Both the position numbers and the translations under genes were made by a program. A stretch of 46,564 nucleotides of DNA from Planctomycetota bacterium (GTDB taxonomy: Bacteria; Planctomycetota; B15-G4; JADJEK01), in contig JACQZJ010000058.1 of assembly GCA_016213895.1 (NCBI GenBank), positions 1-46,564 on the forward strand, in the 5' to 3' direction. Below, in pieces: positions 560-44,330 of this stretch. Position 1 is the first letter of the stretch. Each line of letters starts with the position of its first letter. The notes under the pieces are model-generated. The model was not told the origin of the DNA. It saw only the letters and a program-made list of their open reading frames with translations, and ran no database searches.

Positions 560-960
560 GGCGAGCGATCGCGGCCGTTTCCCCGGGGTCCGGGGCCGGA
601 TCGCGACTTCCGGTGCATCCCGTGCCCGAGGAACGCCATGTGGCTCGTGGTCGGCGAAGGCGATGCTGGCGGAGGGCGTGGATGAGGCACGGCAGGCGTG
701 AACGGGCAACGACGTCGCGGCCGGCCCCTGAACCGGGGAAACGCCGCTCCGCTTCTTCTTCTATGGGGAGGCCGGCCCTGTGAAGGGGGAAGTCTGGGCA
801 TGCGTAGTTCTCCTCTGGGCGGTCGCGGTGGTTTGTTTCGGGAACAGTTGCGTGAGGAAGTCAGCGTCTCCTGAAGCAGGTGTAGCCCCCGCAGGGGAGT
901 TCTGGAGCACGTGGCGACTGTTCTCGGCTGCGGCAACGCCTCCCGCACCAGGTCGGAAGC
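560..960 (-). repeat. Copy A of a diverged repeated non-coding element; partner at about 43990-44330 in inverted orientation
   Basis: The reverse complement of about 560-960 aligns by eye with plus strand about 43990-44330 at roughly 75% identity. Shared blocks include 'gtgcctcatccacgccc', 'acgcatgcc', 'gatgcaccgg(a/g)agtcgcg' and 'gggaaacggc'. Copy A carries an insertion of about 70 nt. Substitutions are not concentrated in third codon positions, so it is not coding. Confidence 0.5.
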
Positions 961-1052
961 GCGCGAACCCTGATCCAGCGCTCGCCGGTCCCCGGGCTCG
1001 AGCCTGGCCGGTGGACCGGAGATCGTAGGAGCCGCCCCCGCGACAGTTTGCC

Positions 1053-1089
1053 GGCGCGACCGCCCTTCACTCGCAAGGGCGGTCGCGCC
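1053..1089. other. Perfect 15-bp stem / 7-nt loop hairpin: GGCGCGACCGCCCTT-CACTCGC-AAGGGCGGTCGCGCC
   Basis: Read directly from the sequence. It lies in the 1.3-kb apparently non-coding stretch between the left partial CDS and the IS110 element. No T-tract follows on either strand. Confidence 0.5.
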
Positions 1090-1499
1090 CACCACCTTGA
1101 GGAGCGCCGCTGCCCGAGCGGAGCCCGCAGGCGCAGGCCAGCACGTCCGTGACGAGCCGCGCGCGCGGAGCTTCAGCGGCGACACACCGGCTGCGGCGCG
1201 GCTCGGCGCGGACGTGCTGCCGCAGCCGCGGGCGAAGCGGCCGGGCGCACGACGACGCGCGCGCCAGGTCAAGCGCAGACCCGCAGGAACTGGTGGAGAG
1301 TCCCACGCGAGAGGGGCGATCCCGGCCATGCTTCTATCCGCAGTCGGACCGTGGTCCGCTGCACGTTGTGGTCCGGTGAAGGCGGGTGCTGCAATCTCCC
1401 TTGAACGGCCTCGTGCGGCCAGCGGAGCGGGCGCAGTCACCCGGACTCTTCGGTGGGATCGTTGTCTCTTCGTCACGTGGGGAGGTGGTCGCATCGCGA

Positions 1500-2760
1500 C
1501 CACATTGGTCGGTGGTTCCTGTCGGGATGTTTCGGCTCAGACGGTCTGGGCCCTCGGGCTAGGCTGCAGGGGGGTGATCCTGGCGGCGGTCTTGGTGTTG
1601 GCGCGGTTCGGCGGCCTCAACGGGATTCCTGCGGCCTGCTTCTGGTGGAGCCGCGCCACGTAGTGGGGGTCGAACTCCTCGCCCGTGATCCACAGGCGGT
1701 GCATGAGCACGGCGAGCCGGCGCGCGACGGCCACGCAGGCGCGCTTGTAGCCGTTCTTGCCGCCGCGCTCGGCCAGCGCCAGGCCGAAGCTCCTCAGGTC
1801 CCAGTCGGCGCTCCGCGGGTGCAGGACGCTGTGCGCACACTGGACCAGGAGCGAGCGCAGGCGCACGTCGCCGGCGCCAGGCCGATGTACGCACCGACGT
1901 CGCGGCTCCTCTTGAAGCGGCGCGGGTCCTCCACGGTCAGAACGAAGGCCAGCGACGTGACCGGGCCGACGCCCGGGATCTGCTCGGCCAGGGTCTGTGC
2001 GATCGGGTAGCGCTTGGCCGTGATCCTGGACAGCCGGCGGTCGCACGCGGCGATGGCGCGGCTCAGCTCGCGGATCGAGCGCAGCAGCGGTAGGACGATG
2101 CGCAAAAGCTCGCGCGGCAAGTCCTTGACGGCGCGCTGCGGGAAGACCTTCGGGTCGCAGCGCTGGATCCTGCCACCCAGGGGCTTGACCAACCCGCGCA
2201 CGGAGTTGACCAGGGTGGTGCGCGCCCCGACCAGCGCACCGCGGGCACGCAGCTGCGTCAAGTCAAGGTGCGTGGCGCGCGACCGGTAGCGCACCGTGTT
2301 CAGGTAGCCCGCAGGCAGGAACCCGGCCATGGCGAGGCGCCGCGCGTCCTCGCGATCGGTCTTCTTCGTCCCCTGCGTGCGCGGGTCGCGCGGATCCACG
2401 ATCAACAGCTCGTGGCCGAGGGAGGTGAGCACGTCACGGATCCAGTGCGTGTGGGTGCCCGCCTCCAGCACCACCCGGAGCGGCGCGAACTTGGTGAACT
2501 TCGCCCGGAACGCGTCCTCGTTGTTCTTGACCACGTCCTCGAGCAGGATCTCGCCCGGCGCGCTCATGACGCAGATGCGCGAGGACTTGTCGCTGACGTC
2601 CACACCCGCCACCACACCGTGAAACTCGAAGCTAGACTGCACCATGAGGCCGGTCTCCTTCTGCACTCGACGAGTGCGTAAAACGCTTGCAGACCCCGCA
2701 AGGGTACTGCGTCACGCGGAGGCCGGCCTCCCCATCACATCTCCCACTCCGTCCCGCCCC
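1500..2760 (-). mobile_element. IS110-family insertion sequence; boundaries approximate
   Basis: It contains an IS110-type transposase gene. IS110 elements lack terminal inverted repeats, so the ends cannot be fixed from sequence alone. Confidence 0.5.
1537..2666 (-). pseudogene. IS110-family transposase disrupted by a frameshift at about 1880-1900
   Basis: ORF 1794..2666(-) carries the N-terminal DEDD-type domain and the 'IPGVGPVTSLAFV...DPRRFKRSRDVGAYIGLAP' region. The C-terminal IS110 module ('GDVRLRSLLVQCAHSVL...YKRACVAVARRLAVLMHRLW...EEFDPH') continues in a different frame (ORF 1537..2046). The frameshift could be genuine decay or an assembly error. Confidence 0.7.
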
Positions 2761-3135
2761 GGTGCTCAGAGCGAGGCGGGCCGCTCCGGTACAACATGCT
2801 TGCGGTAGGCGCTCGCGGGCAAGAGCCCGCTCCCGCCCCGGAATGACTGCACCACGCGCGGACGCGCGGTGCTACGCCCGTCGCGGTCCGAGCTGAACGC
2901 TGAGAGCCGACAGCTGACAGATCTTCTCGCCGGCGCTCGCGGGCCGGAGCCCGCTCCCGCCCGAATCCCGGCGGAACCCCGGTGATCCGCGAGCCGAAAG
3001 GCGATAGAACGTCGTTCATGGCCTCGTCTTGGAGCAGTGGCTGCCGAAACGACCGTCTTCTTGGCAGAGCGACGCCGTCGCCACTCTTCGGGTGCGGGCG
3101 AAGCCCGCGCTGACGGTGCCGGGGAGAACCGCGCG

Positions 3136-4263
3136 ATGGGCCTGAGGATCGCCCTCGACGCCTCCGCGGCCGCGAAGCGGGAGCGCACCGGCGTGGCGCG
3201 CTACGCCGCCTGCTTGATCGACGCGTTGCTCGCGGCCGCCCCGGACTGGCAGTTCACGCTCGGCTGCCGCCTGTCGCGGCTGCGCCGCCATCGCTACCGC
3301 CTGCGGCCGCGCGCCGCGAACGCGCGCACGCGCTACTTCACGGACGCGAGCGTGCGCCTCTGCCTGGGCGCGGCGGACGTCTTCCACGGCCTCGACGCGC
3401 GCATCCCGCCGCGCTGTCCCTGCCCGGCGGTCGTGACGCTGCATGACCTCGGCCCGCTCGAGCGGCCCGAGATCGCGGCGGCGGGCTTCCGCGGCAAGAA
3501 GCTCGCCGCCTATCAGGTCATCGCCGCGCGCTCCGCGCGCATCATCTGCGTGTCGGACGCCACGCGCGACGCCTTCCGCCGCGCCTTCGACCTGCCCGAG
3601 GAGCGCTTCGCGGTCATCCACCACGGCCTGGAGCCGCGCTTCCGGCCGCAGACCGAGCAGGCGGTGGAGGCCGCCCTGCGCCGCCTCGGCATCGCGCGCC
3701 CCTACCTGCTGTTCGTGGGCCTGCTCTCGGCACGCAAGAACTGCGCCGCGCTGGTGCGCGCCTTCGACCGCATGGCCGAGGCCGTACCCGGCCTGCGCCT
3801 GGTGCTCGCGGGCGGGCGCGCGCACGGCTTCGCCGAGGTGGAGCAGGCGCTCGCGGCCGCGCGCGCGCGCGCGCGCATCGTCCTGCTCGGCTTCGTCGAG
3901 GATGAGCTGCTGCCGCCGCTCTACGCCGGCGCGCGCGCCTTCGTCTTCCCCGGCCGGAACGAAGGCTTCGGCCTCCCCATGCTCGAGGCCATGGCCTGCG
4001 GGGCGCCGGTAATGGCCGCGGACACCGCGGTAGCGCGCGAGGTGGCGGGCGGTGCGGCCCTTCTGGCCGACACAGGCGTGGAAGGCGCTTTCGCGGCCGC
4101 GCTGGCGCGGATATGTTCCGAGCGCGCGCTCGCCGAGGAGCTCAGCGCGCGCGGCGCGCTGCGCGCCAAGGAGTTCTCGTGGCAGGCCGCGGCCTTGCGC
4201 ACGCTCGAGGTCTACCGCGCCGCGGCGGCGGCTTCGGTTCCGCTTTTCGGGAGGGGCTCATGA
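3136..4263 (+). CDS. GT4-family glycosyltransferase
   Basis: Typical GT4 layout: N-terminal domain, 'PYLLFVGLLSARKN', and the EX7E-region motif 'FVFPGRNEGFGLPMLEAMACGAPV'. The ATG at 3136 (MGLRIALDAS...) follows an in-frame upstream extension with no homology. The stop overlaps the next start (ATGA). Confidence 0.8.
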   Translation: MGLRIALDASAAAKRERTGVARYAACLIDALLAAAPDWQFTLGCRLSRLRRHRYRLRPRAANARTRYFTDASVRLCLGAADVFHGLDARIPPRCPCPAVVTLHDLGPLERPEIAAAGFRGKKLAAYQVIAARSARIICVSDATRDAFRRAFDLPEERFAVIHHGLEPRFRPQTEQAVEAALRRLGIARPYLLFVGLLSARKNCAALVRAFDRMAEAVPGLRLVLAGGRAHGFAEVEQALAAARARARIVLLGFVEDELLPPLYAGARAFVFPGRNEGFGLPMLEAMACGAPVMAADTAVAREVAGGAALLADTGVEGAFAAALARICSERALAEELSARGALRAKEFSWQAAALRTLEVYRAAAAASVPLFGRGS

Positions 4264-6401
4264 GGATCCGCACGGGACACGGCCGGTACCTGCCGGCGCT
4301 CTGCTTGATCTCGCTCAGCGCCTGCACCGGCCTGGAGCGCGAGGGAGTGGACGAAAAGTTCAACTTCTGGCCGCTCGCGCGCTACGAGACCGTCGCCGAG
4401 CCCCCCGGGCACACGCTCGACGTGCTCTGGCCGCTGGCGCAGTTCCAGCGCGCGGGCGAGGCGTCCGCCTCGCGCGTCCTGCCCTTCTACGTGCACAAGG
4501 ACGACGGAGCGGGCAAGCGCTTCCTGAACGCGCTGCTCCTCTACTGGCAGGAGATCAACGAGCCGCGCTCAAAGGTGAGCAGGACGCTCTTCCCCTTCCT
4601 CTTCTACGTGCGCTCGCCTGAGGAATGGGAGACCCACGTCTGGCCCTTGTACGGCGTGCGCAAGTACGGGCCGGAGGACAAGCGGTCGCGCTGCGACATG
4701 GCCATCTTCCCGCTCTTCGACTACGACCGGCGCCTGGACGGCTCGTGGAGCGACCTCGACCTGCTCGGCATCGGACCGGTCTTCTCGCTCTTCGATTCCG
4801 CATACGGCGCGCCCAAGGGCGAGGGAGAGGCGGCCGTGGCGCGGCGCGACATCGACGTGCTGCAGCTCCTGAGCGGGCTGTTCAGCGTCTTCACCTTCCG
4901 GCAGCGCCCCCTCCTCGAGGCGCAGGCGCTCGCGGAGGGCGAGCAGGCGAACGCACAGGCCGCCCCGACCGCGGGAGGCTTCACGCGCGAGAGCCGCTTC
5001 CTCGACCTGTTCGGCGCCCTCGCCCTGTTCGCGCACCGCAGCGAGCACGATGCGGCCGCGCAGCCCGAGAGCCGGCGCGCGCACTTCTTCCCCTTCTACT
5101 GGCACTTCCGCGACCAGGAGAAGTCGACGCTCTTCCTGCTGCCGCTCTTCGGCCGGGAGGAGCGCGGCGACACTTACACCCGAACCTGGATCGTGCCGCC
5201 GCTCGTCTCGCTGGAGGAGGACGACGCCGAAGAGATGAGCGGCGTGGACGTGCTTTGGCCGCTGTGGCGCTACGAGAGCCGCGGGGGCTCTGATCCCGGC
5301 TGGCATCTGCGCGCCCTGCCCCTTCTCTGGTTCACCAAGCGGCCGGACGCCCAGACCAGCCTGATCCTGCCCATCTACTACCGCATCCGCGACGCGGAGA
5401 ACGACTACCTGCACGTCGTCCCCTTCTACGGGCGGCACAGCGAGCATGGCGGCCTCCTGCGGCGCACCTTCATCGTGCCGCCGTTCTACATCGCCACGCG
5501 CGACGAGCGCGAGCACCTGACGCGCCGCGACTTCCTGTATCCGCTGGCGCGCTTCGAGACGTCCCAGGCCGGGACGCGCAACTACGCCCTGCCCTTCTTC
5601 TACTACCGCGACGCGGAGAGCCGCTCGCACCTGAACGTGCTCGGGCTCTTCGACCGCGACAAGAGCGAGGTCAGAGTCTCGACCCTCTGCTACCCCTTCT
5701 ACTCGGGCATCGAGGCCTTCGGCGAAGGGAGCCGCACCTCCTGGCTGCCGTTCTTCGACTGGCGCTTCTTCTCCGATCCCGTGCCCGGGGGCGAGGACAC
5801 GTCGGTCCTCTTCCCGCTGGCGAGCTTCCAGCGCAAGGACAACGAGCGCAGCCGCTGGGTCTTCCCCTTCTACTGGTGGTTCGACGACGGCGCCGGCGAG
5901 ACCTACAGGCACATCTGGCCCTTCTTCGGCGTGGACCACGAGAGGACCGGGCTCAGGCGCTTCTCCACCCTCTTCCCGTTGTTCTTCTACGGCGCGAACG
6001 AGGAAGGCACGCACAAGGACGCGGGCGTCCTCTTCCCGCTCGGCGGCGCGGCCACCGAGGACGGCGAAAGCCGGCACTGGTTCATCCCGCTCTTCTACAA
6101 CCGCACCACCGAGCAAGGTGACAACGCCGGCTCGCGCACCTGGGTGCTCTGGCCCTTCTTCTCGCGCACCACCGAGGCCGACGGCTCCTGGCAGTGGAAC
6201 TCCCTGTTCACCCTGCTCTTGAACCACGAGCACGGCCCGGGCGAGGAAGGCGCCGAGGAGTTCTCGGTGCTGGGCGCGCTCTACCGCAGCCGCAGCGAGG
6301 GCGAGAAGAGCAGCACGAGCGTCGCCTTCCTCTTCCGCTACGAGAACGACGGCGGCGAGCGCACGCTCAAGCTCTTCCACTTGATCCCCATCCGCTTCTG
6401 A
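4260..6401 (+). CDS. Large repeat-rich putative outer-membrane lipoprotein, family unknown
   Basis: Signal peptide with the lipobox-like 'LISLSAC'. About 28-30 degenerate repeats with a period of roughly 24 aa and core h-[WFY]-P-[LF]-[FYW]-x-[YFW] (FWPLARYE, LWPLAQFQ, FFPFYWHF, LWPLWRYE, VFPFYWWF, IWPFFGVD...). The C-terminal residue is Phe. The gene is translationally coupled to the GT4 gene and lies 57 bp upstream of the RND gene. Confidence 0.7.
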   Translation: MRIRTGHGRYLPALCLISLSACTGLEREGVDEKFNFWPLARYETVAEPPGHTLDVLWPLAQFQRAGEASASRVLPFYVHKDDGAGKRFLNALLLYWQEINEPRSKVSRTLFPFLFYVRSPEEWETHVWPLYGVRKYGPEDKRSRCDMAIFPLFDYDRRLDGSWSDLDLLGIGPVFSLFDSAYGAPKGEGEAAVARRDIDVLQLLSGLFSVFTFRQRPLLEAQALAEGEQANAQAAPTAGGFTRESRFLDLFGALALFAHRSEHDAAAQPESRRAHFFPFYWHFRDQEKSTLFLLPLFGREERGDTYTRTWIVPPLVSLEEDDAEEMSGVDVLWPLWRYESRGGSDPGWHLRALPLLWFTKRPDAQTSLILPIYYRIRDAENDYLHVVPFYGRHSEHGGLLRRTFIVPPFYIATRDEREHLTRRDFLYPLARFETSQAGTRNYALPFFYYRDAESRSHLNVLGLFDRDKSEVRVSTLCYPFYSGIEAFGEGSRTSWLPFFDWRFFSDPVPGGEDTSVLFPLASFQRKDNERSRWVFPFYWWFDDGAGETYRHIWPFFGVDHERTGLRRFSTLFPLFFYGANEEGTHKDAGVLFPLGGAATEDGESRHWFIPLFYNRTTEQGDNAGSRTWVLWPFFSRTTEADGSWQWNSLFTLLLNHEHGPGEEGAEEFSVLGALYRSRSEGEKSSTSVAFLFRYENDGGERTLKLFHLIPIRF

Positions 6402-6457
6402 GGGAAGCGGCGGCGGGCGCGCGGGGAAGAACCGCGCGCCGCTATCCGCCCACGAGC

Positions 6458-9400
6458 ATGCCCGAAACGCCGGCCGAGGACCGCCGGGAGCACCCCGGCT
6501 TCGCCGCCCTGCTCGGCCGGCCGGTCACGGCGCTCATGGCCTTCATCCTCATCGTCCTGCTGGGGGTCGTTTCTTACCTGCGCATCCCGATCATGCTCCT
6601 GCCCAAAGGGATCGCCGCGTCCGAGATGACGATCATGGTGCCCTGCCCCGACTCCAGCCCGACCGAGGTCCTGGAGCAGGTCACCAAGCCCCTCGAGGAC
6701 GCGATCCGCACCCTGCCGGACGTGACGGAGGTCAACTCCGAGTCCGAGGCTTCGAGCGCGCGCGTGAGCGTGAGCTTCGCGCCGAACACGGACATGGACC
6801 TGGCCTACAACGAGATCCAGGACCGCATCGAGCGCACCAAGCCGAGCTTCCCCGAGGGTGTGAGCGACATCCGCATCTGGCGCTGGAACTCGGACGTGGA
6901 GATGCCGATCTTCTGGCTCGGCATCCTCTACGAGGACACGGTGGCGGATCCCTTCGGCGTGGTGGAGGAGGTGATCCAGCCGCGCTTCGAGGCCGTGGAC
7001 GGCGTGGCCCGGGTGCAGATCCACGGCATGGTCGAGGACTCGGTGCGCGTGTTCGTCTCGCCCGAGGCGCTGCGCTCCCACGGCCTCAGCCTGTACGACG
7101 TGGTCGCGACCCTGCGGCGCGACAACTTCACGCTCCCGGCCGGGAGCATCGACGACGGCGGGCGCGAGTTCCTGCTGCGCATCGAGGCCGGCTTCCACAG
7201 CCTGGACGAGATCCGCCAGTACCCGATCCGCGAGAACGTGCAGGTCCAGGACGTCGCCGACGTGCGCATCGAGAAGGCGTACCGCGACAACGTCAGCCGC
7301 GTCAACGGCTACAGCTCGCTCACCGCCGTGCTCAACAAGGAGTCGGACGAGAACACCGTCGCCGTGTGCCAGCGCGTCATGGCGCAGATCGAGGAGATGA
7401 AGCGCGACGAGCGCCTGGCCGGATTCCAGTTCAACGTCTACTTCAACCAGGCGGACGTCATCGTCAGCTCGCTCGGCAACCTCAAGTCATCGATGGGCTG
7501 GGGCGCCCTCTTCTCCTTGCTGATCCTCTACGCGTTCGTGCGCCGCGTCGCCATGACGCTCATGGTGGCGCTCGCCATCCCGGTGTCGCTCCTCGCCGCC
7601 CTGGTCGCGGTCTACTTCAGCGGCTTCACCTTCAACATCCTCTCCCTCGCCGGGTTCACGCTCGCCATCGGCATGCTGGTCGACAACTCCATCGTCGTGG
7701 CGGAAAACGTGGCGCGCCTGCGCGCGCTCGGCTGGAAGCCGTTCGCGGCCGCGGCCTCCGGCGCCGGGCAGGTGGGCCTGGCCATCATCCTCTCGACGCT
7801 CACCACGATCATCGTCTTCACGCCGCTGGTGTTCATGGCCAAGGAGCGCAACACGCGCATCCTGCTCGGCGAGCTGGCCGCGCCCATCACCTACTCGCTC
7901 CTGGCCTCGCTGCTCACCGCCCTGGTCTTCCTGCCCATCGCCACGGTGCAGTTGAGCCGGCGGCGCACGGGCCGGGCCGCGGAGTGCGCCGCGCCGTCGG
8001 CCTACTCCGGCGCTTCGCGCCTGCTCTCGGGCTACCGCCGCCTGCTGGCCTTCACCCTGCGCCACCGCTTCGGCGTGACCGTGTTCACGCTCGCCGTGAT
8101 CGCGCTCGGCGCTCAGGCGTGGCGCGGCCTGCAATTCTCCTTCGAGGAGGGCGGCCACAACGACCGGCTGCGCATCGACGTCAAGCTGCCGAGGCGCTTC
8201 ACCCTGGCCGAGGCTTCCGCGGTCTTCGACCAGTTCGAGGAGTTCCTGCTCGCACGCCGCAAGGAGTATCAGTTCGAGGACCTGAGCGTGTTTTTCGACC
8301 GCCGGCGCGGGGAGGCGGGCCTCTGGTTCGACGACGACGCCCCGCGCCCCGATTCGCGCCAGCTCTCCTGGCGCCTGCGCGAGGAACTGCCCAAGATCCC
8401 GGGCGTGGAATACGAGATCGGCTTCGAGGCCGAGGGCGCCGAGGCCGGAGTGCACGTCCAGCTCTACGGGCCGGACAGCGTCGAGCTGACGCGCATCGGC
8501 GACGAGCTGGTGCGCGAGCTGCAGCGGCTGCCGGAGCTGTCGAACGTGCGCACCGACGTGGCGGAGGGCTTCGAGGAGCTGCGCGTGGGCATCGACCGCG
8601 ACCGCGCGCAGCGCTTCGGCGTGAGCCAGGAGATCCTGCAGGGACTGATCGCCTGGGGGGTCGGCGGCCAGCGCCTCGCGGGCTACCGCGGCGAGGAGCG
8701 CGAGATCCCGCTGCTCATCGAGTACGAGGAGCCCCAGGTCGGCGACCTCAACTACCTGCGGGCGCTGGACGTGCCCGTCGATCGGGAAGGGGGCTCGGTG
8801 CCGCTCGCCGCGCTCACCCACTACCGCTTCGAGAAGTCGCTCGGCTCCATCCTGCGCAAGGACGGCATCACCAGCCTGGGCGTGCAGGCCGATTCCTACG
8901 ACAAGAACTCCTACCGCATCCAGCGCAAGGTGGCCGCCGTGCTCGAGGACTTCCCCTTCCCCGAGGGCTACGGCTGGAAGGACGCGGGGCGCCGCGAGGA
9001 GTTCGAGGAGGGCCTGAAGGAGGTCGGCATGGGGCTGTTCGCCGGCATCTGCTTCGTCTTCCTGCTCATGGGCATGCTCTTCGAGTCCGCGATCCTGCCC
9101 CTGTCGGTGCTGCTCACCATCCCGCTCGCCATGGTCGGCGGCATCCTGGCGCTCTTCATCACGCGCACGCCGCTCGACGGCATGGCTCAGCTCGCCTTCA
9201 TCCTGCTGGCGGGCGTGGTGGTGAACAATGGGATCGTGCTCGTGGACCGCATCCGCCAGGTGCAGAACGCAGGCATGGCGCGCACCGAGGCGATCCTCAC
9301 CGGCTGCGCGCAGCGCGTGCGGCCGGTGCTCATGACCGCGCTCACGACCATATTCGGCCTGCTGCCCATGGCTCTCCCCAAGGTCTTCGCCTCGGGCACG

Positions 9401-19031: not shown

Positions 19032-19976
19032 ATGTCCAGAACCCCGGCGCTCCTCTTCGCCTGCGCGGCGCTTTCTTGCGGCAGCGCGGCAGCGGACGAG
19101 TTCACGCTCGCAGACGGCAAGGTGGTGCGCGGCGACGTGCTGAAAGAAACCGCCGACAAGGTGTTCGTCGACATCGGCTTCACCGTGCTCGACGTGCCCA
19201 AGGCGGACGTCGTCAGCCGCGTGGCCGAGGCAGAGGAGAGCCTGGCGGAGCCGGCGGAGGAGGAGAGCCGCGGCCTCTACTCCGAGGCCGAGCTCGCCGA
19301 CCTGGGCGTCAAGGCGGCGGTCGAGAAGTACGGCGAGGGCGTGGTCCTGGTGAAAGTGCCGGGAGCGCTCGGCTCGGGCTTCATCATCCGCGAGGACGGC
19401 TACATCATCACCAACTCGCACGTGGTGCAGGGCGAGATCGAGGTCTCGGTCGTGATCTACCACCTGGCCGACGGCCAGTTCGAGAAGAAGAACTTCGACA
19501 AGGTCAAGGTCGTGGCCGTGAACCCCTTCGTCGACCTGGCGCTGCTCAAGATCGAGGAGGAGGACCTGAAGGACACCAAGCTGCAGAAGGTCTACCTCGG
19601 CGACATCGAGAAGGTCGAGGTCGGCCAGCAGGTGTTCGTGGTGGGCGCGCCGCAGGGGATGGAGCGCAGCGTCACCGAGGGCATCGTCTCGATCAAGAAC
19701 CGCGAGAACGACGGCAAGGTCTACATCCAGATCGACGCCGCGGTGAACCCGGGCAACTCGGGCGGCCCGCTGTTCAACACGCGCGGCGAGGTGATCGGCG
19801 TCAACACCTGGAAGCGGCTCTTCTCCGAGGGGCTGAACTTCGCCATCCCGGTGGACTACGTGAAGCACTTCATCCGGAACCGCGACGCCTTCGCCTACGA
19901 CCGCGACAACCCCAACTCCGGCTACCGCTACCTGCCGCCGCCCAGCCGCCCGAAGACCGAGAACCCGGAGGAGTGA
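19032..19976 (+). CDS. Trypsin-like (S1C/HtrA-type catalytic domain) serine protease without a PDZ domain; secreted or lipoprotein
   Basis: Catalytic triad context: 'TNSHVV' (His), 'DLALLKI' (Asp) and 'GNSGGPL' (Ser). The signal peptide carries a possible lipobox 'LSCG'. Confidence 0.85.
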   Translation: MSRTPALLFACAALSCGSAAADEFTLADGKVVRGDVLKETADKVFVDIGFTVLDVPKADVVSRVAEAEESLAEPAEEESRGLYSEAELADLGVKAAVEKYGEGVVLVKVPGALGSGFIIREDGYIITNSHVVQGEIEVSVVIYHLADGQFEKKNFDKVKVVAVNPFVDLALLKIEEEDLKDTKLQKVYLGDIEKVEVGQQVFVVGAPQGMERSVTEGIVSIKNRENDGKVYIQIDAAVNPGNSGGPLFNTRGEVIGVNTWKRLFSEGLNFAIPVDYVKHFIRNRDAFAYDRDNPNSGYRYLPPPSRPKTENPEE

Positions 19977-19980
19977 GATC

Positions 19981-20454
19981 GTGCACACCGAACTCAAGGG
20001 CACGCTGGACGGCAGCGGCCTGCGCATCGCGATCGTGGCCGCCAAGTTCAACGAGTTCATCACCACGCGCCTGCTGGCCGGAGCGCTCGACGAGCTCGGC
20101 AAGCTCGGCGTCAAGCCCGAGAACGTGACCGTGGCCTGGACGCCAGGCGCGTTCGACATGCCGCTCGTGGCCAAGGCCTTTGCCGAAAGCGGCAAGATGG
20201 ACGTGATCGTCTGCCTGGGCGCGGTCATCCGCGGCGAGACCGACCACTACCATCACGTGGCCGAGGGCGTGGCCAAGGGCATCGCCAGCGTGGCGCTGCA
20301 GAGCGGCGTGCCGGTTCTCTTCGGCGTGCTCACGGTCGACAGCCTCGAGCAGGCGATCAACCGCGCCGGCGCCAAGTCGGGCAACAAGGGCGCGGAGACG
20401 GCGCGCGCCGCGATCGAGACCTGCCACCTGCTGCGGCGCATCCGCGGCGCCTGA
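19981..20454 (+). CDS. ribH: 6,7-dimethyl-8-ribityllumazine synthase
   Basis: 'GLRIAIVAAKFNEFIT', 'VAWTPGAFDMP' and 'ETDHYHHVAEG' are canonical RibH motifs. GTG start with an upstream GGAGGAG. Confidence 0.9.
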   Translation: MHTELKGTLDGSGLRIAIVAAKFNEFITTRLLAGALDELGKLGVKPENVTVAWTPGAFDMPLVAKAFAESGKMDVIVCLGAVIRGETDHYHHVAEGVAKGIASVALQSGVPVLFGVLTVDSLEQAINRAGAKSGNKGAETARAAIETCHLLRRIRGA

Positions 20455-29024: not shown

Positions 29025-29052
29025 GGCCGCCGCGCTCGAGCTGCGTGAGCCA

Positions 29053-34030: not shown

Positions 34031-34126
34031 TTGCATGCAGCAGGCGGGGCAGCGCGTCACGCGCGACCCCGCCTGCTCGGCACGGTGCGGACCTTGCGGC
34101 GATCGCCGCCACCCGCGGGCTTCTCG

Positions 34127-35746: not shown

Positions 35747-35749
35747 TTC

Positions 35750-36531: not shown

Positions 36532-37944
36532 CTACGGGAACCAGATGGCGCCCGGCGCGCCGAGCTGCTCCGGGATGGGGAAGAGCGCGTTCCCCGGGTC
36601 ATAGGCCTGCCCGACCAGCACGTAGGGCGAGATGCTGTGGGTCAGCGTGCCCTGCAGGACCGCGACGCCGTTGAAGTCGGTCGGCAGGAAGAAGACCAGG
36701 TTCCACCCCACCGGGTAGGTGAAGATCTCGGGGTAGATCTTGCCCCAGACCTGCAGCGCGGTGGGCTGATTGCCGGGCGTTCCGGGGAAGACCTTCACCA
36801 GGAAGAGAACGACCGAGTTCGGCACGCAGTTGCCGACGTCCCACTCGACGAGCGTCTCGCCCGGATACGCGATCTCGCCGTCCGGCACGTCCATGGCCAG
36901 CGGACGCCCGGTGTCGCCGAGCACGGTGAGCGCGCCAATGCCGCCGCTCATGGATGCCAGGCCGTACTGGAAGAGATCGGGCGTGGGTGCGCCGAGAGGA
37001 GCGCCGAAGCTGGTCACGCCGAAGGCGCCGCCCGCGTCGGTGGTGAACACCACCGGACCGAGGCTCTCGCCGGAGAAGAAGAGGTTCGGGTGGGCCTGCC
37101 CGTCGAGGCCGATGAAGGTCTTGCCCACGGTGTCGATCGCCAGGCAGCTCAGGTCGCCGACCGCCGAGGCGGTCAGCAGGCCGGCGGTCACGATCATCGC
37201 GTCCACGTCCGCCTCGTTGAGCAGAAGCACCGCGGAGCCGGAAACGACCGCCGTCACCACGCCCGCAGGCGAGTAGGTCAGCGCGCTGCCCGGGATCATG
37301 ACCACGCCGCCGTCCCCCACCAGGACGGTGTTCACCAGCTCGTCATCGGCGAACGACAGGTAGACGTTGCCGTTGTCGTCCTGGGTGAACGCGTCGGTGT
37401 TGGCTGCGTCGCCGAGGCCCTGCCCGATCGCCGCCAGGATCTGCGCCTCGGAGAGCACGACTTCGATGAAGTCGCCCGCGGCGAAGCCGGGCACGAAGCG
37501 GAAGATCGAGCCGTTCGCCACGCCGGCGAAGGGGTCGCTCGCCGAGTAGACGTACTCGTAGACGGTGCGCGTCACGCTCGGCTGCACGGGCACGCGCAGC
37601 AGGTCGATCGCGTCGATGCCGCCCAGGATGTTCTCGAAGTGGTCGCCGTCGCCGTCGTGGTCGCCGAGCAGCACGTTGATCGTGGCGTTCGTCAGGATCT
37701 TCTCCGCGGAGAAGGTGAACACGGGCTGGAAGTGCACCACGTCAGTCGGGCCGCAGGTGCCGAGCGCGGTCCCGCTCGACCCGGACGAGGTGAGGGCCGT
37801 GCCGTTGGCCACGTAGATGATCCCATCGGGTCCGGGAACGACGATGTCGGCGCGCGCCGCGGTCGCGAGCGCGCACAGGATGCCGGTTGCGAGGATGACG
37901 CGAGATGTCTTCACGCTGATCCCTCCAGGGTGTGCAGGAGCCAT
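36532..37944 (-). CDS. Secreted hypothetical protein of about 470 aa
   Basis: Signal peptide 'VKTSRVILATGILCALATAARA|DIV'. Gly/Thr/Val-rich with beta-rich-like composition and a 'DHDGDGD' motif. No family recognised. Alternative GTG start at 37914. Confidence 0.6.
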   Translation of the reverse strand: MAPAHPGGISVKTSRVILATGILCALATAARADIVVPGPDGIIYVANGTALTSSGSSGTALGTCGPTDVVHFQPVFTFSAEKILTNATINVLLGDHDGDGDHFENILGGIDAIDLLRVPVQPSVTRTVYEYVYSASDPFAGVANGSIFRFVPGFAAGDFIEVVLSEAQILAAIGQGLGDAANTDAFTQDDNGNVYLSFADDELVNTVLVGDGGVVMIPGSALTYSPAGVVTAVVSGSAVLLLNEADVDAMIVTAGLLTASAVGDLSCLAIDTVGKTFIGLDGQAHPNLFFSGESLGPVVFTTDAGGAFGVTSFGAPLGAPTPDLFQYGLASMSGGIGALTVLGDTGRPLAMDVPDGEIAYPGETLVEWDVGNCVPNSVVLFLVKVFPGTPGNQPTALQVWGKIYPEIFTYPVGWNLVFFLPTDFNGVAVLQGTLTHSISPYVLVGQAYDPGNALFPIPEQLGAPGAIWFP

Positions 37945-38350
37945 GCCGCCAGGTTCTCGGGGAGTGCAAGCCGCCAGGCAGCCACCCCGCCGCCTTCCGG
38001 GTAAGCCGGAGTTCGATCCGGACGTTGGACGCGGACCGCTCCAGCCGTGTTCCGGCTTCGTGCGCGCAATCGTACCAGGCAGTCGAAATCCCGCACACGG
38101 ATTCGACCGAGCCGCCCGAGTCGCGACGGCACGGTCGCACGTTGGCCGCGCGGACCGTCGCGGGCGCCGCCGAAAGGCCCGGCCAGGCGAAGTAAACCGG
38201 CCCTTAACAAGAGCTTGACGCGACGTCGCGTTTCGCTTCGCGGACGTTGCGACGGCCCGGCGCGGGATCCCTGACGGCAGCGCGCGCGCTTCCACCGTGC
38301 GGGTGTTACACTGGCGCACACCCAGCACCGCAACGGAGGCGCACACCCGA

Positions 38351-39751
38351 ATGTCCCGCCACACCCTGCTCTTCGCATCCGCGCTCGTTCTCGCCGCCCT
38401 CTCCGGCGCCGCCCTGGCCACCGAGACGGTTCGCGTCGCCACCTACAACATCCAGTCGGTCGGCTCAGGCACCGAGCTGACCGCCCTGACCAGCGTCATC
38501 AACCGGATGGCGGCCGACGTGGTGCTGCTGCAGGAGGTGCAGTCGAACGAGACCGCGCAGGTCGGCCCGCTGGCGAGCGCCTGCGGCTACCCGTGGTACG
38601 TGGTCGCCAACACCAGCGGGACCCTGAGCGGCGCCCTCAAGAACGCGGTGCTCTCCAGGTACCCGATCACCTCCTCGGTCTCCTGGTCCGCGGCCATGGC
38701 CAGCGGCGACCCGGCGGCCAACGACATCTGCCGGGACATCCTGCAGGCGGAGATCGCGGTCCCGGAAGCGTGCGAGCCGCTCGCGGTGTTCACGGTGCAC
38801 CTCAAGGCCTCAAGCTCGAGCACGGATAAGTTCCGGCGGGCCGTGGAGCTGATCCGGGTGCGCCAAGTCATCGAGGCCTACCTCCTGGCCCACCCGAGCG
38901 CCTGTGTCGTCTTCGGCGGGGACATGAACGAGGACATCGGCGACGGGCCCTTCGGCCAGACCTTCACCAGCCTGCCCGGCGGGCTGCCGGCCTCGTACCA
39001 GCTCGGCAGCGACATCTCGTTCCCGGTGCTGTACGACCCGTTCAACTACGTGACGACGATCGGCGGCCTCGGCCTGCTGCCGGTGGACGCGACCCAGGAG
39101 GACAGCCTCGCGTATGCGACGCGGGCCGCCTCGGGCCGGCGGCTCGACTACGTGTTCCAGCGCGCGAGCGTGCTGGCGCTGGGAGACGAGGTGTATGCCT
39201 CGCCCCAGGACAACGGCCTGGACGACGCGCCCCTCGGCTACTTCCTGAGGAAGGGCGGCGCGCCCCTCGCGTCCGGCGCGAGCGCACTGGCGTCGGATCA
39301 CTACTCGGTGTACGCCGACTTCCTGCTGGAGAGCTGCACCGGCGTGCGCTACGGCGGCGGCTACCCGGGCGACCACATGCTCATGCCGCGCGCGGGGATC
39401 GCCGGCACGGGCAGCATCGGCGACGCCCTCTTCGGCCTGCGCGGCCTGTACGCCGCGCCGAACGCCCCGTGTGTGCTGGTGCTCGGCAGGGCGCGCATGC
39501 TGCCGCCCACGGGCTATCCCCTCGATCCCTACGTGCCCGGCGCCTACCTGCACGTCCAGCTCGCGGGCATGATCGGCCTGTTCACGCTCTTCACGGACGC
39601 GGCCGGCGAGGTGATCCTCAACGTGCCCCTGCCGAACGACCCGGCCTTCATCGGCCAGATGGTGAACACGCAGTGGTTCATCTCCGACGTCAACGGTCCG
39701 AACGGCGTCGGCGCGATGACGGACGCCTACGAGCTGGCCATCCAGCCCTGA
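38351..39751 (+). CDS. Secreted endonuclease/exonuclease/phosphatase (EEP) family protein, paralog 1
   Basis: Signal peptide and EEP hallmarks: 'VATYNIQS', 'DVVLLQEV', 'FGGDMNED' and 'SDHYSV'. An extra C-terminal domain of about 150 aa is shared with paralog 2. Confidence 0.8.
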   Translation: MSRHTLLFASALVLAALSGAALATETVRVATYNIQSVGSGTELTALTSVINRMAADVVLLQEVQSNETAQVGPLASACGYPWYVVANTSGTLSGALKNAVLSRYPITSSVSWSAAMASGDPAANDICRDILQAEIAVPEACEPLAVFTVHLKASSSSTDKFRRAVELIRVRQVIEAYLLAHPSACVVFGGDMNEDIGDGPFGQTFTSLPGGLPASYQLGSDISFPVLYDPFNYVTTIGGLGLLPVDATQEDSLAYATRAASGRRLDYVFQRASVLALGDEVYASPQDNGLDDAPLGYFLRKGGAPLASGASALASDHYSVYADFLLESCTGVRYGGGYPGDHMLMPRAGIAGTGSIGDALFGLRGLYAAPNAPCVLVLGRARMLPPTGYPLDPYVPGAYLHVQLAGMIGLFTLFTDAAGEVILNVPLPNDPAFIGQMVNTQWFISDVNGPNGVGAMTDAYELAIQP

Positions 39752-39770
39752 GCCGCCGGAGCGAAACGCC

Positions 39771-41174
39771 ATGCGCCTGCCGCGTGCCGCCCTCGTCATC
39801 GCCGCACTTTTCGCCGTCGCGCCGCCGCTTGCCGCCACCGGCGCGCTCCGGGTCGCGACCTACAACGTCGAGGAGCTGAACTACGGCACCTCCGGCTTCA
39901 CCGCGCTGGTCAGCATCCTGAAGCGGGTCGATGCGGACGTCGTGCTGCTCCAGGAGGTCAAGACCTCCGAGGTGGCGCTCGCCGCCACGCTCGCCAACGC
40001 CGCGGGCTACGCGCACTACCAGGTGGCAAGCGTCAGCGGCACGCTGAGCGGCGACTTGCGCTGCGCGGTGCTGTCGCGCCACCCCATAGCCCAGGCGGTC
40101 TCTTGGTCGGCGGCCGCCATCAGCGGCGATCCGCAAGCCAACGACATCTGCCGCGACATCCTGCAGGTCGAGATCGACGCGGCCGAGGCGTGCGCTCCGG
40201 TCGCGGTCTTCACCTTCCACCTGAAGTCCGGTTCGACCACGACCGACGACTTCCGCCGCGCGGTGGAGATCCTGCGCCTGAAGGAGGTGGTCGAGAGCTA
40301 CGCCGCCTCCCACCCCTCCGCCACGTTCTTCCTCGGCGGGGACGCGAACGAGGACCTGGCCGACGGCCCCTTCGGCCAGACCTTCACCAGCCTGCCGGGC
40401 GGCCTGCCGCCCACGTACGACCTGGGAAACGACGTCTCCTTTCCGGTCGTGTACGACCCGTTCACCACGATCTCGTCGATCGGCGGCCTCGGCCTGCTGG
40501 CGGTCGACGCCACGCAGGAGGACTGCGCGACCTGCTACGCCACGCGTCCCAGCTCGGGCCGGCGGCTCGACTACGTCTGGAAGCGCTTCAGCACGACGCT
40601 GCTCGGCGACGAGGTCTACGCCTCGCCCGTGGACAACGGCGCAGACGAGGCGCCGCTCGGGAACTACTTGTACAAATGGGGCTCGCCCCTGGCGTCGAAC
40701 ACCTGCTCGCTGGCCTCGGATCACTACCCGGTGTTCACCGATTGCCTGCTGGAGAGCTGCGGCGGCACGCGCTACGGCGCCGGCTACCCCGGGGACCACA
40801 ACCTGACGCCGCGCGCCGGCATCACGGGCGGCATCTCCATCGGCGACGGCGGCTTCGGTCTGCGCGAGCTGTACGGCAAGCCGAACTCCCTGACGGTCCT
40901 GGTCCTGGGCCAGGCGCGCCTCTCGCCGCCCTACGGCTATCCGCTCGACCCCTACGTTCCGGGCGCCTGCCTGCATGTCTCGCTGGCCAGCATGTACGGC
41001 CTCTTCACCCTGTACACCGACGGCCAGGGCGATGCCCTGCTCTCCCTGCCCTTGCCGCCCAATCCGGCCTACATCGGCCTGCATCTCAACAGCCAGTGGT
41101 TCGTGAGCGACACGGCCGGGCCGAACGGCGTGGGCGCGATGACCGACGCGTACGAGGTCGTGCTGCAGGCGTGA
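39771..41174 (+). CDS. Secreted EEP family protein, paralog 2 (tandem duplicate)
   Basis: Same architecture and roughly 60% identity to the upstream gene: 'VATYNVEE', 'DVVLLQEV', 'LGGDANED', 'SDHYPV', with a shared C-terminal 'GYPLDPYVPGA...GPNGVGAMTDAYE'. Confidence 0.8.
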   Translation: MRLPRAALVIAALFAVAPPLAATGALRVATYNVEELNYGTSGFTALVSILKRVDADVVLLQEVKTSEVALAATLANAAGYAHYQVASVSGTLSGDLRCAVLSRHPIAQAVSWSAAAISGDPQANDICRDILQVEIDAAEACAPVAVFTFHLKSGSTTTDDFRRAVEILRLKEVVESYAASHPSATFFLGGDANEDLADGPFGQTFTSLPGGLPPTYDLGNDVSFPVVYDPFTTISSIGGLGLLAVDATQEDCATCYATRPSSGRRLDYVWKRFSTTLLGDEVYASPVDNGADEAPLGNYLYKWGSPLASNTCSLASDHYPVFTDCLLESCGGTRYGAGYPGDHNLTPRAGITGGISIGDGGFGLRELYGKPNSLTVLVLGQARLSPPYGYPLDPYVPGACLHVSLASMYGLFTLYTDGQGDALLSLPLPPNPAYIGLHLNSQWFVSDTAGPNGVGAMTDAYEVVLQA

Positions 41175-41251
41175 CGTGTCCGGCGCGCGACGCTGCAGCG
41201 CCGTGCCCGGAGCGTCCATCGGCGGCTCGCGCGGACTCTCGGCCGCGAAAG

Positions 41252-43786
41252 TCACCGGCCGGCGTGTTGCACCAAGTTCAGGAGCCGGCGATCGCAAGGA
41301 TTGACGCGGGAGCCCTCCCGGAAGATCTCGAGACCCGACCTCAAGTCACGGATCCCGGCGCCCGCGGCGTAACCGCGAAGCAGGTAGGTCTCCGAGAGCT
41401 GGAAGCGGGCGAGGGTCTCGGGATCGTGGTCGCCGCGCAGCCCCAGCCCTCGCGGATCGAGCGAGCGAATCATCCACGCGAGGTTCTGGCGCTCGAGCTG
41501 GCCCGGGGAGGCGATCCCCATCATCGCGGCGATGATGGAGAACTCGAGTCGGGGCCGCTCCCATGTGTTGACCGGCCCCGGCCCCGCCGCTGCGCGCAGC
41601 TGCTCGTTCCCGGCAACATACATGGAGGCCAGCACGTATGGATCGCCGATGTCGAGCAGCCGGTAGTCCGCAAAGGTGCGCAGGCCGAGCGCGAAACGAC
41701 GCGCGCGCTCCAGGTCGAGCACGAGCGGGGACCGACTGCCGGCGAACACGAGGTTCATCGGGCTGTGCCAGAACAGGCCCGCGTAGGTGAAGGCCTCGGT
41801 GAAGCTGCGTACGATCATCTGGAGCTCCGCCGGCGGCGTGTGCAGGACGATCCACTGCACCATGACGCCGCGGTCGGTCAGTCGCTCGCGACAGAGCTGG
41901 TAGTAGTCGCGCGAGAGCAGCCGGGCGTTGCCCGAGCAGGCCGGGTTGAGCTTCGAGTCGCAGCTGATGACGTCGTACCGCTCCCGCGAGGTCAGAAGGT
42001 GCTGGATACCGTCCCCGACGTGGAGAGTGACCCGCGGGTCCTGGAGTACGTTGTCGTGGAAGACCGAGAAGAACCGGGCTCCCTCGACCACGCCGGGAAC
42101 GATCTCGACGCAGGTCAACTGCCGGATCTCGTCGTACTGGGCGAGACTCCCCAGCGTGATCCCGGAACCGAGGCCGATCACCAGGACCGACTCCGCCTGC
42201 GGAACGAGCACCATCGGCAGGTGGGCGAGGATCTTCTCCTTCTGGAGGATGGTCCGGTTCGTGCCGCCGATCTCGTGCCCGTCGATCGCCATCTCGCGGT
42301 CTCCGCTGCGCTTCTCGTAGACGCGGGTCTCGGCGACCGAGTCCTCGCGCTCGAACAGCACGCGGTCCCTGGGCGACTGCGAGTCGGCGAGAATCGCCCC
42401 CCCGGAGCGCAGCGCGGCCGGCGCCGCGACCGCGATCGCGACCGCGACCGCGGCGGAAACCGCGACCGAGAGGGCGCGGCGCGGCCGGGTCCCGATCTGA
42501 GCGACGACCCCCAGCCCCGCGCTCCAGACCGAGCTGGCGAGGATCGCTCCCTTCACCCCGAGGGCGGGCAGGATGACGAAACCGGCGGCCAGGGCTCCCA
42601 GTATCGATCCGATGGTGTTCGCGAAGTACAGCCGCCCGACGCCCTCGCCGACGCCATCGATGCGGCGGATCCCGATCCGCGTGACGATCGGGAGCGTCAT
42701 GCCGAACAGGAACGTGGGCAACGCCATGACCCCGAACGCGACCAGGAAGCGCCGGCTCACGTACGTGGCCAGCCCGCACTGCGCGGGAGAGAGGAACGCC
42801 CCTTCCCTCAGGCGCGGCAGGACGTCCCAGATCACGGGGACGGTGGCCAGCACGAACAGCCCGATGCAAAGCTGCACCCACCCGAGCAGCCGTCCCGGCG
42901 AGACGACGCGATCGGCGAGACGACCTCCGACCCACCCCCCGGCCGACAGCCCGATCAGGAACGTCGTGAGCATCGCTCCATGCGCGTACGTGGAGTTGCC
43001 CAGGAACTGCTGAAGGGCCCGCGTCCAGTGGATCTCGAGACCGAGCGCGGCGAAGCCGCTCGCAGCGAAGATCGTCGCGAGCAGCGAACCCGCGATCTCG
43101 CTCGGCGAGGCGCACGGGCCGTCCACCGGGGCAGGCGCGGCGGCCGCGGGCGCGGGATCCGTGAGCGAGGACGGCCGAACCTGGCGCAGCGCCAGCACGG
43201 CGAGGCCGATCGCCAGGTTGAGCGCGACGGCCAGCGCGGTGCAGCGCGCGAGACCCAGCCACCCGATGAGCACGAAACCGGCGAGGAACGCGCCGGCAAC
43301 GGCTCCGGCCGTGTTCAGGGCGTACAGCAGGCCGAGCCCCCGGCCGAGCCGATCCATGCGGCGCACGAGGAACCGGCTGAGGGCCGGCAGCGTGCCGCCC
43401 ATGAGAAACGTCGGCGGAAAGACGGCGACGAACGCCACCAGGATCTTCCACGCGGGAGCGCCTGCCGGCGCCCATTGGACCAGACTCACGTAGATCGGTT
43501 TCAGGAGTGGCAGCAGGACGAGCACGAACGCGCCGAGCAGTCCGATGCCGAGCTCGAGGAGCCCGTAGAGAAGGAGCGGATCACGCACGCGGTCGGTCCG
43601 GCCCCCGAAGAAGCGGCTCCCGAACGCGAGCCCCCCCATGAATGCCGCCAGCACCGTGCTGATGGCGAACGTGGTCCCGCCGATGAGGTAGGAGAGGGCC
43701 CGGATCCAGACCAGCTGGTAGATCAGGCCGCTGACTCCGGACAGCGAGAACAGGACGAGAATCAGGACCAGGGCGACCCGAGGCAT
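41252..43786 (-). CDS. Fused polytopic membrane domain + spermidine-synthase-like (PABS) aminopropyl/methyltransferase
   Basis: About 12-14 TM helices in the first 450 aa, then a class-I methyltransferase/PABS fold ('VLVIGLGSGITLG', 'VEIVPGVVEGARFF', 'DVISCDS') and a C-terminal TPR-like tail. Confidence 0.75.
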   Translation of the reverse strand: MPRVALVLILVLFSLSGVSGLIYQLVWIRALSYLIGGTTFAISTVLAAFMGGLAFGSRFFGGRTDRVRDPLLLYGLLELGIGLLGAFVLVLLPLLKPIYVSLVQWAPAGAPAWKILVAFVAVFPPTFLMGGTLPALSRFLVRRMDRLGRGLGLLYALNTAGAVAGAFLAGFVLIGWLGLARCTALAVALNLAIGLAVLALRQVRPSSLTDPAPAAAAPAPVDGPCASPSEIAGSLLATIFAASGFAALGLEIHWTRALQQFLGNSTYAHGAMLTTFLIGLSAGGWVGGRLADRVVSPGRLLGWVQLCIGLFVLATVPVIWDVLPRLREGAFLSPAQCGLATYVSRRFLVAFGVMALPTFLFGMTLPIVTRIGIRRIDGVGEGVGRLYFANTIGSILGALAAGFVILPALGVKGAILASSVWSAGLGVVAQIGTRPRRALSVAVSAAVAVAIAVAAPAALRSGGAILADSQSPRDRVLFEREDSVAETRVYEKRSGDREMAIDGHEIGGTNRTILQKEKILAHLPMVLVPQAESVLVIGLGSGITLGSLAQYDEIRQLTCVEIVPGVVEGARFFSVFHDNVLQDPRVTLHVGDGIQHLLTSRERYDVISCDSKLNPACSGNARLLSRDYYQLCRERLTDRGVMVQWIVLHTPPAELQMIVRSFTEAFTYAGLFWHSPMNLVFAGSRSPLVLDLERARRFALGLRTFADYRLLDIGDPYVLASMYVAGNEQLRAAAGPGPVNTWERPRLEFSIIAAMMGIASPGQLERQNLAWMIRSLDPRGLGLRGDHDPETLARFQLSETYLLRGYAAGAGIRDLRSGLEIFREGSRVNPCDRRLLNLVQHAGR

Positions 43787-43989
43787 TGCATTGAAGAAGA
43801 GTAACCGAGTCGCCGTAGGCTGGCGAGAGGGTAGGACAAGGGTGCGTCAATGTCCCAAGGCGAGTCCCCGTCGCAGCTATTGGCGGCTTCCCGAGGAGGG
43901 GACATCGGGAAAGCCGCCGGGTGAACACTCGACGTGGCCCGCCGGCACCGCGCGAGCCAGGTTCACACCCACAGCGCCAGCAGTTCCTA

Positions 43990-44330
43990 TTCCAGAAGCG
44001 CCGCATAGCTCGGCGAGTCGCCCACCGGCCAGCCGTTGCCCGAGTAGTGGTGGCGGCACGGCGGCGCTCAGGCCGCGTACTCGTGCAACAACAGCGGCCG
44101 CACCGCCAGCTCGGGCGCTCTCTGCGGCACGGCTCGCGTGAACGCTTACGCATGCCGCACGGCCGCGACGGCGTCACCCTCGCGCCCACCGTGCCTCATC
44201 CACGCCCGCCGGAAGCACCGCCTCCGCCCGCAGCGAGCCACTCCCCGTTTCTCGCGCACGGAATGCACCGGGAGTCGCGCACCCGTCCCCGGAGCCAGGG
44301 AAACGGCTGCGACGCTCCCCCTCTCCCCTC
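43990..44330 (+). repeat. Copy B of the diverged repeated non-coding element (partner of 560-960)
   Basis: See copy A. It sits in the 565-bp gap between the start of the PABS-fusion gene and the ispH stop. Confidence 0.5.

Follow-up and report, generated by a model that had tools for sequence, protein, structure and literature searches.

The contig JACQZJ010000058.1 of the metagenome-assembled genome (MAG) GCA_016213895.1 was analyzed in its entirety (46,564 bp, 70.6% G+C, proteins MBI4879465-95) and is referred to here as the window. Two sequences near its ends, copy A and copy B, are inverted relative to each other and are probably paralogous copies of a dispersed mosaic intergenic repeat, similar to REPINs (hairpin-forming doublets of REP (repetitive extragenic palindromic) sequences), bacterial interspersed mosaic elements (BIMEs) or miniature inverted-repeat transposable elements (MITEs). 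The repeat appears to serve as the target of an insertion sequence (IS), and the pair most likely forms the boundaries of nothing. A dispersed REP-like family was one of three options raised by a sequence-only reading of the window, the others being an unannotated structured RNA and the relic termini of a genomic island. It is favored by further copies and fragments at non-equivalent intergenic sites, by the grouping of copies by genome, and by the use of the repeat as a target by an IS110-family element.

The inverted match between the two copies is well supported, and it is shorter than first proposed. The minus strand at 543-723 aligns with the plus strand at 44160-44338 over 181 nt with 74% identity and two gap positions (blastn E 4e-34), and the ungapped arm pair within it (543-701 and 44180-44338, 159 nt, 74%) is the longest inverted repeat detected in the window by a repeat search. 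The local alignment score of 90, compared with a maximum of 23 among 64 real-sequence controls from the same window and 200 shuffles, places the identity far above chance, which answers the pairwise alignment check suggested at the outset. Thus, the originally claimed identity of about 75% holds over about half of the claimed length. On neither side of the core do the flanks align above shuffle level; the best local score between 724-1100 (reverse complement) and 43800-44159 is 12, against a shuffle mean of 11.9, and the left side enters the IS, so that an extent of 350-400 nt with a ~70-nt indel is not sustained. Among the shared blocks listed in support of the pair, gtgcctcatccacgccc, atgcaccgg.agtcgcg and gggaaacggc all fall inside the 181-nt alignment; the A-side 9-mer acgcatgcc (797-805) lies inside the IS (760-2742) and is therefore no part of the repeat. 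The 1.3-kb non-coding gap noted on the left consists mostly of the non-coding end of the IS (760-1536) plus the repeat.

Conservation of the repeat is not at the protein level, as had been suggested. Hand counting on the alignment and translations gives 3, 9 and 7 differences at codon positions 1, 2 and 3 of the best shared frame, which shows no third-position bias, and the indels between the copies are not multiples of three. Neither copy shows periodicity of G+C content at third codon positions (GC3), and they have no conserved start codon. Protein coding of the repeat was ruled out on the basis of the missing periodicity, third-position bias and conserved start.

Additional copies are found in GCA_020723465.1, a relative reached via protein clusters at 90% identity. 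In this genome, an 844-aa protein is 90% identical to its counterpart in the window and coding DNA is 87-90% identical. Outside the lineage, the 844-aa protein has homologues of ~55% identity at best. A third full copy is located on contig L120 (8858-9099) directly downstream of the 844-aa gene, a site equivalent to that of neither copy A nor copy B, and matches copy A at 77% and copy B at 76.5% identity. It is followed in tandem by partial copies that run off the contig end, and upstream of the 844-aa gene there is another repeat fragment. A fourth copy, in short form (5554-5748), stands just upstream of a glycosyltransferase gene on L125, a contig collinear with 3.1-13.5 kb of the window. 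In total, four full and at least five partial copies were observed in ~106 kb from the two genomes. Read on its G-rich strand, each of the four full copies comes right after the 3' end of a gene of the same direction: copy A follows the gene ending at 274, and copy B begins ~14-28 nt past the stop codon of LytB. Assemblies break in or next to the repeats, as seen at the end of L120, the start of L124 and in the IS-sized contigs L121-L123.

Wider searches were mostly negative. A profile built from the four copies, which matches the copy A X module (the segment of copy A in the 181-nt alignment) at E 1.4e-43, has no match in 0.9 Mb of unrelated genomes. In a scan of genome contigs with the 17-mer, none of the sequences among the at least 118 matches listed (from unrelated taxa, expected by chance) is similar beyond the seed. 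Two scans of metagenome contigs, for two independent blocks of conserved sequence with 22 and 24 specified bases, returned zero matches, and a translated-repeat profile searched against 1.84 billion representatives for spurious open reading frame (ORF) calls returned only two low-complexity matches.

The surroundings of the copies also differ between the two genomes. At L125 5560-5580, the counterpart of window 543-562, an Aldolase_II gene of the relative shares its final codons and stop (TGA) with the purine-rich 5' end of the repeat, which thus supplies the end of this reading frame. Synteny with L125 4834-5553 breaks immediately to the left of copy A (window 1-535), and a gene end at 2-274 without a Pfam match stands where the relative has EutN and Aldolase_II; this break is due either to rearrangement at the repeat or to an erroneous join in one MAG assembly or the other. 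On the other side, the interval between LytB and the 844-aa gene in the relative (L120 2191-6325) contains a 1200-aa CarboxypepD_reg-repeat gene, and the same interval of the window (43787-44351) is occupied by copy B plus ~370 nt only. No remnant of the 1200-aa gene was detectable in the copy-B gap. A faint coding-like GC periodicity is seen at 43900-44150 in this gap.

The full unit is ~200 nt long and comprises two ~50-nt inverted arms around a ~100-nt core, which contains the 17-mer. In copy A, the L arm (~556-609) and the R arm (~711-757), an inverted copy of the L arm, flank a core of ~100 nt, and an arm profile matches at 556-609 on the plus strand and 711-757 on the minus strand. The corresponding unit on L120 spans 8903-9100. 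Internal inverted repeats were detected in both copies, at 579-599/721-741 in copy A (81%) and at 8922-8950/9059-9087 in the L120 copy (76%), and the arms carry an invariant CGTTTCCC motif plus a small palindrome. Copy B has an L arm (44272-44324) and the core, its R arm is reduced to the innermost 10 nt, and it ends sharply at ...GTCGCGGCCG. The L125 copy shares its truncation point (...GCGGCCG), and both are devoid of the outer R arm and of the Y module, a continuation of the unit found in the long forms. Hence, copy A and L120 8858-9246 represent long forms, copy B and L125 5554-5748 represent short forms cut at ...GCGGCCG, and smaller fragments occur as well. The Y module features the REP-like hairpins GCGGGC-N4-GCCCGC and CACCaCGCGCG-N2-CGCGCGGTG; its L120 counterpart (9107-9246) directly follows the repeat copy, and a Y-module sub-repeat is present at 2923-2965 of the window. 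In addition, a second family of small intergenic repeats, unrelated to the first, occurs at window 41193-41253 and 46328-46428 (86% identical to each other) and at L120 6036-6135 (76% identical to the window), with one window copy just past the RluA stop near the contig end and the other between the convergent 844-aa and Exo_endo_phos genes.

The two long-form units are predicted to fold with a closing stem of ~32 bp, and the arm profile matches in both orientations, as expected of the inverted arms of a REPIN. Between copy A and the L120 copy, two pairs of this stem are changed on both sides and none is broken, and the inner of the two (CGCGAC/GTCGCG vs CGCGCC/GGCGCG) is kept in all four copies. 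The copy A unit is unusually stable, with folding z-scores of -2.98 as DNA and -2.88 as RNA and none of 200 shuffles as stable.

Comparison of the four copies suggests a family that evolves within genomes. Identity is 74% (copies A and B) and 80% (L120 and L125) within genomes and 64-69% between them, and the copies at the equivalent glycosyltransferase-proximal site of the two genomes are 68% identical. Nearby intergenic DNA outside the repeats, where it can be aligned, is 80-91% identical between the two genomes. Of the informative sites, 16 favor grouping by genome, five favor grouping by position and one supports another grouping. Grouping by genome rather than by position is the pattern of a family that has spread or been homogenized within each genome, and is unlike that of vertically inherited single-copy elements. 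An alternative considered is that the copies are passive, either remaining from old segmental duplications or kept alike by occasional gene conversion, with neither mobility nor function. The low identity among copies (64-80%), the failure to find a mobilizing enzyme among the window proteins scanned or a target-site duplication (TSD), and the absence of copies from a further 33 kb of the relative would all suit this explanation. However, the copies occupy different intergenic sites in two genomes with collinear flanking genes, the same sharp truncation point recurs, tandem partial copies stand at a contig end, inverted-arm complementarity is kept through changes on both sides, and duplicated flanking gene sequence never accompanies the copies. 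A passive origin is therefore considered quite unlikely.

The IS in copy A belongs to the IS1111 subgroup of the IS110 family. The L120 copy runs straight into the homologue of window 2754-2888, which indicates that window 756-2753 is an insertion inside a longer unit; in this IS-free copy, the counterparts of window 755 and 2754 are 7 nt apart. Features typical of such elements were found, namely a DEDD transposase with PF02371, near-perfect sub-terminal repeats and site-specific insertion. Members of the IS1111 subgroup usually have sub-terminal repeats of 11-13 bp with terminal extensions of 7 bp and 3 bp, and a long non-coding region (NCR) downstream of tnp that encodes a seekRNA briefly matching both target strands (PMC11187229). 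The IS ends were set by this 7-bp/3-bp extension rule. In L121, the right junction so obtained abuts the target AGCGGAGC, and it falls no more than 2 nt from the L120 empty site. Two empty sites are present on L120, and an empty site there reads GCTCCGCTTC|AAGCGCGCCGTCTCG.

Relatives of this IS on L121-L123, from three other samples, are 84-88% identical at the DNA level. All four IS copies adjoin the same point of the repeat, with at least three distinct flanks. This point is the R arm's outer edge, beside GCTCCGCT, and at least three different versions of the repeat carry an IS there. Such behavior has precedents, as all copies of several IS110-family elements lie at a fixed position in REPs (PMC1525189). 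REP-targeting elements of the IS110/IS1111 type include ISPa11, ISPpu9, ISPpu10, ISRm19 and IS621 (PMC1525189), and seek/bridge RNAs have been described for this group (PMC11187229, PMC11208160). The transposase gene of the window is frameshifted near 1866-1995: in a tblastn search with an intact 385-aa relative, residues 1-259 align to 2645-1866 and residues 239-384 to 1995-1543 in another frame. It is probably either a pseudogene or the product of an assembly error. Intact relatives are 385-386 aa long, and the closest are 83-87% identical in amino acid sequence and all metagenomic. A second IS copy of the same MAG (P0294/MBI4879400.1) resides on a 92.8-kb contig.

The NCR downstream of the transposase measures 777 nt in the window, and its first ~240 nt seem better conserved than the coding sequence (~90% in the four-copy alignment, estimated by eye and not computed, vs 84-88% for the coding sequence). 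This conserved part contains CCGCTCCGCT, the reverse complement of plus-strand AGCGGAGCGG at 1421-1430. CCGCTCCGCT can pair with 10 nt of repeat sequence that adjoin the insertion point on the right flank; the 8-mer is found in 1.5% of shuffles. A 10-nt complement in a conserved NCR fits RNA-guided target choice, by which the IS would find the repeat through seekRNA/bridge-RNA recognition. Like REP-targeting IS110/IS1111 elements, this IS combines a DEDD transposase (PF01548 and PF02371), sub-terminal inverted repeats, a long NCR after tnp, a fixed insertion point in a host repeat shared by several copies, and an NCR stretch complementary to the flank. Unlike them, it is uncharacterized and has sub-terminal repeats of 15 bp rather than the usual 11-13 bp, an extra ~260-370 nt in its NCR, a frameshifted transposase and one convincing guide flank. 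Moreover, the window IS has ~370 nt (861-1227) where the L121 copy has ~109 nt; this segment, of up to 81% G+C and with a strong hairpin GCGCGACCGCCCTTCACTCGCAAGGGCGGTCGCGC at ~1055-1089, may be a nested insertion or a passenger segment.

Genes were placed across the window by GC3-based gene calling and Pfam. Copy A is neighbored by the gene ending at 274 and by the transposase gene, and copy B by a fused MFS/spermidine synthase (41252-43786, minus) on one side and LytB/IspH (44352-45188, minus) on the other. The 43 kb that separates copies A and B is core chromosome with housekeeping genes, coding for a GT4 glycosyltransferase, AcrB, an HgcA-like CdhD-domain protein, FtsY, NusB, PurD, galactokinase (GalK), a two-component system, flotillin and five tRNAs, and a Pfam scan of the window proteins revealed no integrase among the interior genes. 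The order RluA-LytB-...-844-aa gene is collinear across the position of copy B in the relative, and interior genes are also syntenic. These data bear on the proposal that the copies are relic inverted termini of a ~43-kb composite transposon or genomic island carrying the IS110, hgcAB and RND genes. The inverted orientation of the two copies and the IS beside one of them speak for this proposal. It is nevertheless exceedingly improbable, being contradicted by an interior of core functions without an integrase, by the gene order that the relative keeps across copy B and inside the bracket, by the absence of a TSD at the inverted pair, by the occurrence of the same repeat at other sites, and by the position of the IS, which is inserted into a repeat unit and is neither a terminal module nor cargo.

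The earlier hgcAB call itself agrees with the gene content: the CdhD-domain protein at 12376-13509 (minus) is adjoined by a small 4Fe-4S ferredoxin gene (~12041-12375), named from an annotated orthologue in the relative (L125 16634-17090). This pair is syntenic in the relative and hence does not reside on a mobile block here. There is no 43-kb island that includes hgcAB or the RND pump, and nothing in the window indicates that these genes are mobile.

A structured non-coding RNA has also been proposed, in which the copies would be genes or cis-elements (a 3'-UTR-derived small RNA, or a stabilizer or terminator hairpin) transcribed from the G-rich strand, with few paralogues. The location of all four full copies 3' of co-directional genes, the long-form stem with its two compensatory pairs, the stability of copy A as RNA and the tolerance of the G-rich strand for G-U pairs are in line with this proposal. 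Yet Rfam 15 identifies only the five tRNAs in the window at the gathering threshold, and no Rfam match overlaps either copy even at E<=10. The core alone shows no excess of stability (z from -1.1 to +1.1), the covariation term is near zero or unfavorable (+1.0/+2.6 with three copies and -0.4/+0.25 with four), the predicted fold shifts with each added copy, and the local arm hairpin has no compensatory pairs in eight instances. Furthermore, two of the four copies are devoid of the outer R arm that the closing stem requires, copies may be fragmentary or partial in tandem, and their positions turn over between close relatives. Promoter and terminator consensus sequences are likewise absent, as sigma-70 promoter and intrinsic terminator scans of the repeat found only a weak 5-bp stem (734-751) followed by a TTCTTC run. 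The Rfam and covariance checks envisaged in the sequence-only reading thus provide no positive support for its RNA option, which is judged unlikely. A candidate two-copy RNA hairpin pairing the two best-conserved blocks was rejected when its register was lost on adding the third and fourth copies. The arm-to-arm stem is the only supported pairing, and it is missing from two of the four copies.

The dispersed repeat remains the best explanation, and the unit would act as a non-autonomous or recombination-homogenized element of the REPIN/BIME/MITE type that spreads or is converted within the genome, probably through its hairpin form, with truncated copies such as copy B being decayed remnants. 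REPINs are inverted REP doublets that consist of a spacer and a hairpin and display compensatory changes and decayed singlets (Bertels & Rainey 2011, PMC3116915). Like REPINs and BIMEs, the units described here are extragenic and bear inverted palindrome-containing motifs around a less conserved spacer, and they would form a long hairpin as single-stranded DNA or RNA. Truncated singlet-like remnants and tandem partial clusters are further similarities to REPINs, the two-sided changes that keep pairing may be another, and copies are more alike within than between genomes, as in REP/REPIN families. As in BIMEs, the mosaic REP clusters of enterobacteria, the units combine with other short modules (the Y module and the second family). 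On the other hand, REPINs measure 71-110 bp overall, and the arms here are ~45-50 nt around a ~100-nt spacer, with far more diverged copies (64-80%); REPINs also number tens to hundreds of extragenic copies per genome, and abundance here is apparently modest, judged from ~106 kb plus 33 kb. The host is an uncultured lineage labelled Planctomycetota and not a proteobacterium, and no RAYT is seen in the window. With MITEs, the units share a length of ~200 nt, imperfect terminal inverted arms, a non-coding and intergenic nature, and a position that differs between related genomes. In contrast to MITEs, no autonomous IS with matching ends was found and no TSD is defined; the nearby IS differs in its sub-terminal repeats and has the repeat as its target rather than being its parent.

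Several observations weigh against this assignment. A further 33 kb of the relative, collinear with the interior of the window, contains zero copies, and the family may be small. The copies, at 64-80% identity, are far less alike than typical active REPIN or MITE populations. No RAYT, Y1_Tnp domain or other candidate mobilizing enzyme was found among the window proteins scanned, the ends of the unit are not fixed to the nucleotide, and no TSD is defined for it. The arms are only 76-81% complementary, and their ~100-nt spacer is longer than that of described REPINs; the compensatory changes amount to two single events between two genomes, and the stability of the L120 unit does not significantly exceed that of shuffles (z ~-1.4). 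With respect to the IS, the left flanks of the L122 and window copies are similar and might represent one inherited insertion, and guide matches on the left flank are 5-7 nt, so that the right flank alone is convincing. A bolder version of the assignment, an undescribed REPIN-like hairpin replicator (~50-nt arms, ~100-nt spacer, linked Y module) that is native to a deep-branching lineage, mobilized by an enzyme, functional for the host at 3' ends, and used as a safe landing pad by an IS1111 element with a programmed seekRNA, is rather unlikely. An effect on the host, such as that of a 3'-end hairpin on transcript stability or termination, is speculative.

Table 1. Positions of the repeat copies and of the insertion sequence in the window
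Feature	Positions	Strand	Basis
Copy A, X module	543..723	+ (G-rich strand = +)	74% to 44160-44338 (-), 77% to L120 8858-9099, 72% to L125 5554-5748
Complete hairpin-forming unit of copy A	556..757	+	Internal inverted repeat, arm profile, folding
IS1111-subgroup (IS110-family) IS, 1,983 bp	760..2742	-	At outer edge of copy A R arm; absent from L120 copy
IS sub-terminal inverted repeat, right-end side, ATGGGGAGGCCGGCC	763..777	.	Perfect 15-bp inverted match to 2721-2735
Conserved NCR, candidate seek/bridge RNA	1290..1536	-	Four-copy alignment, complementarity
IS110-family DEDD transposase gene, frameshifted	1537..2666	-	PF01548 (5.4e-15) and PF02371 (2.4e-10, truncated)
IS sub-terminal inverted repeat, left-end side, GGCCGGCCTCCCCAT	2721..2735	.	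Partner of 763-777
Y module, long-form continuation of copy A beyond the IS	2754..2888	+	77% to L120 9107-9246
Copy B, short (truncated) form	44160..44338	-	Alignments, arm profile, four-copy profile

Other features of the window were noted in passing. Two tandem paralogous genes of the endonuclease/exonuclease/phosphatase family at 38297-41174 share 70-75% DNA identity over ~900 nt (direct repeats D1-D3, spacing ~1420). In addition, a trypsin-like peptidase ORF (19032-19973, plus) overlaps the 5' third of an FG-GAP ORF (16497-20228, minus), both with Pfam matches. The annotation of the relative (L128) includes the trypsin gene, so the true start of the FG-GAP gene is probably downstream of the one implied by its longest ORF.

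These findings remove a false lead, as mobility of hgcAB or of the RND pump is unsupported by the window, and the repeats explain the assembly breaks of these MAGs here. They also document a family of hairpin-type intergenic repeats, probably of the REPIN/BIME/MITE type, in an uncultured lineage that is poorly sampled and from which hardly any such elements have been described. Finally, the stretch of an IS1111-type NCR complementary to its host repeat offers a putative natural guide-target pair that is open to experiment.

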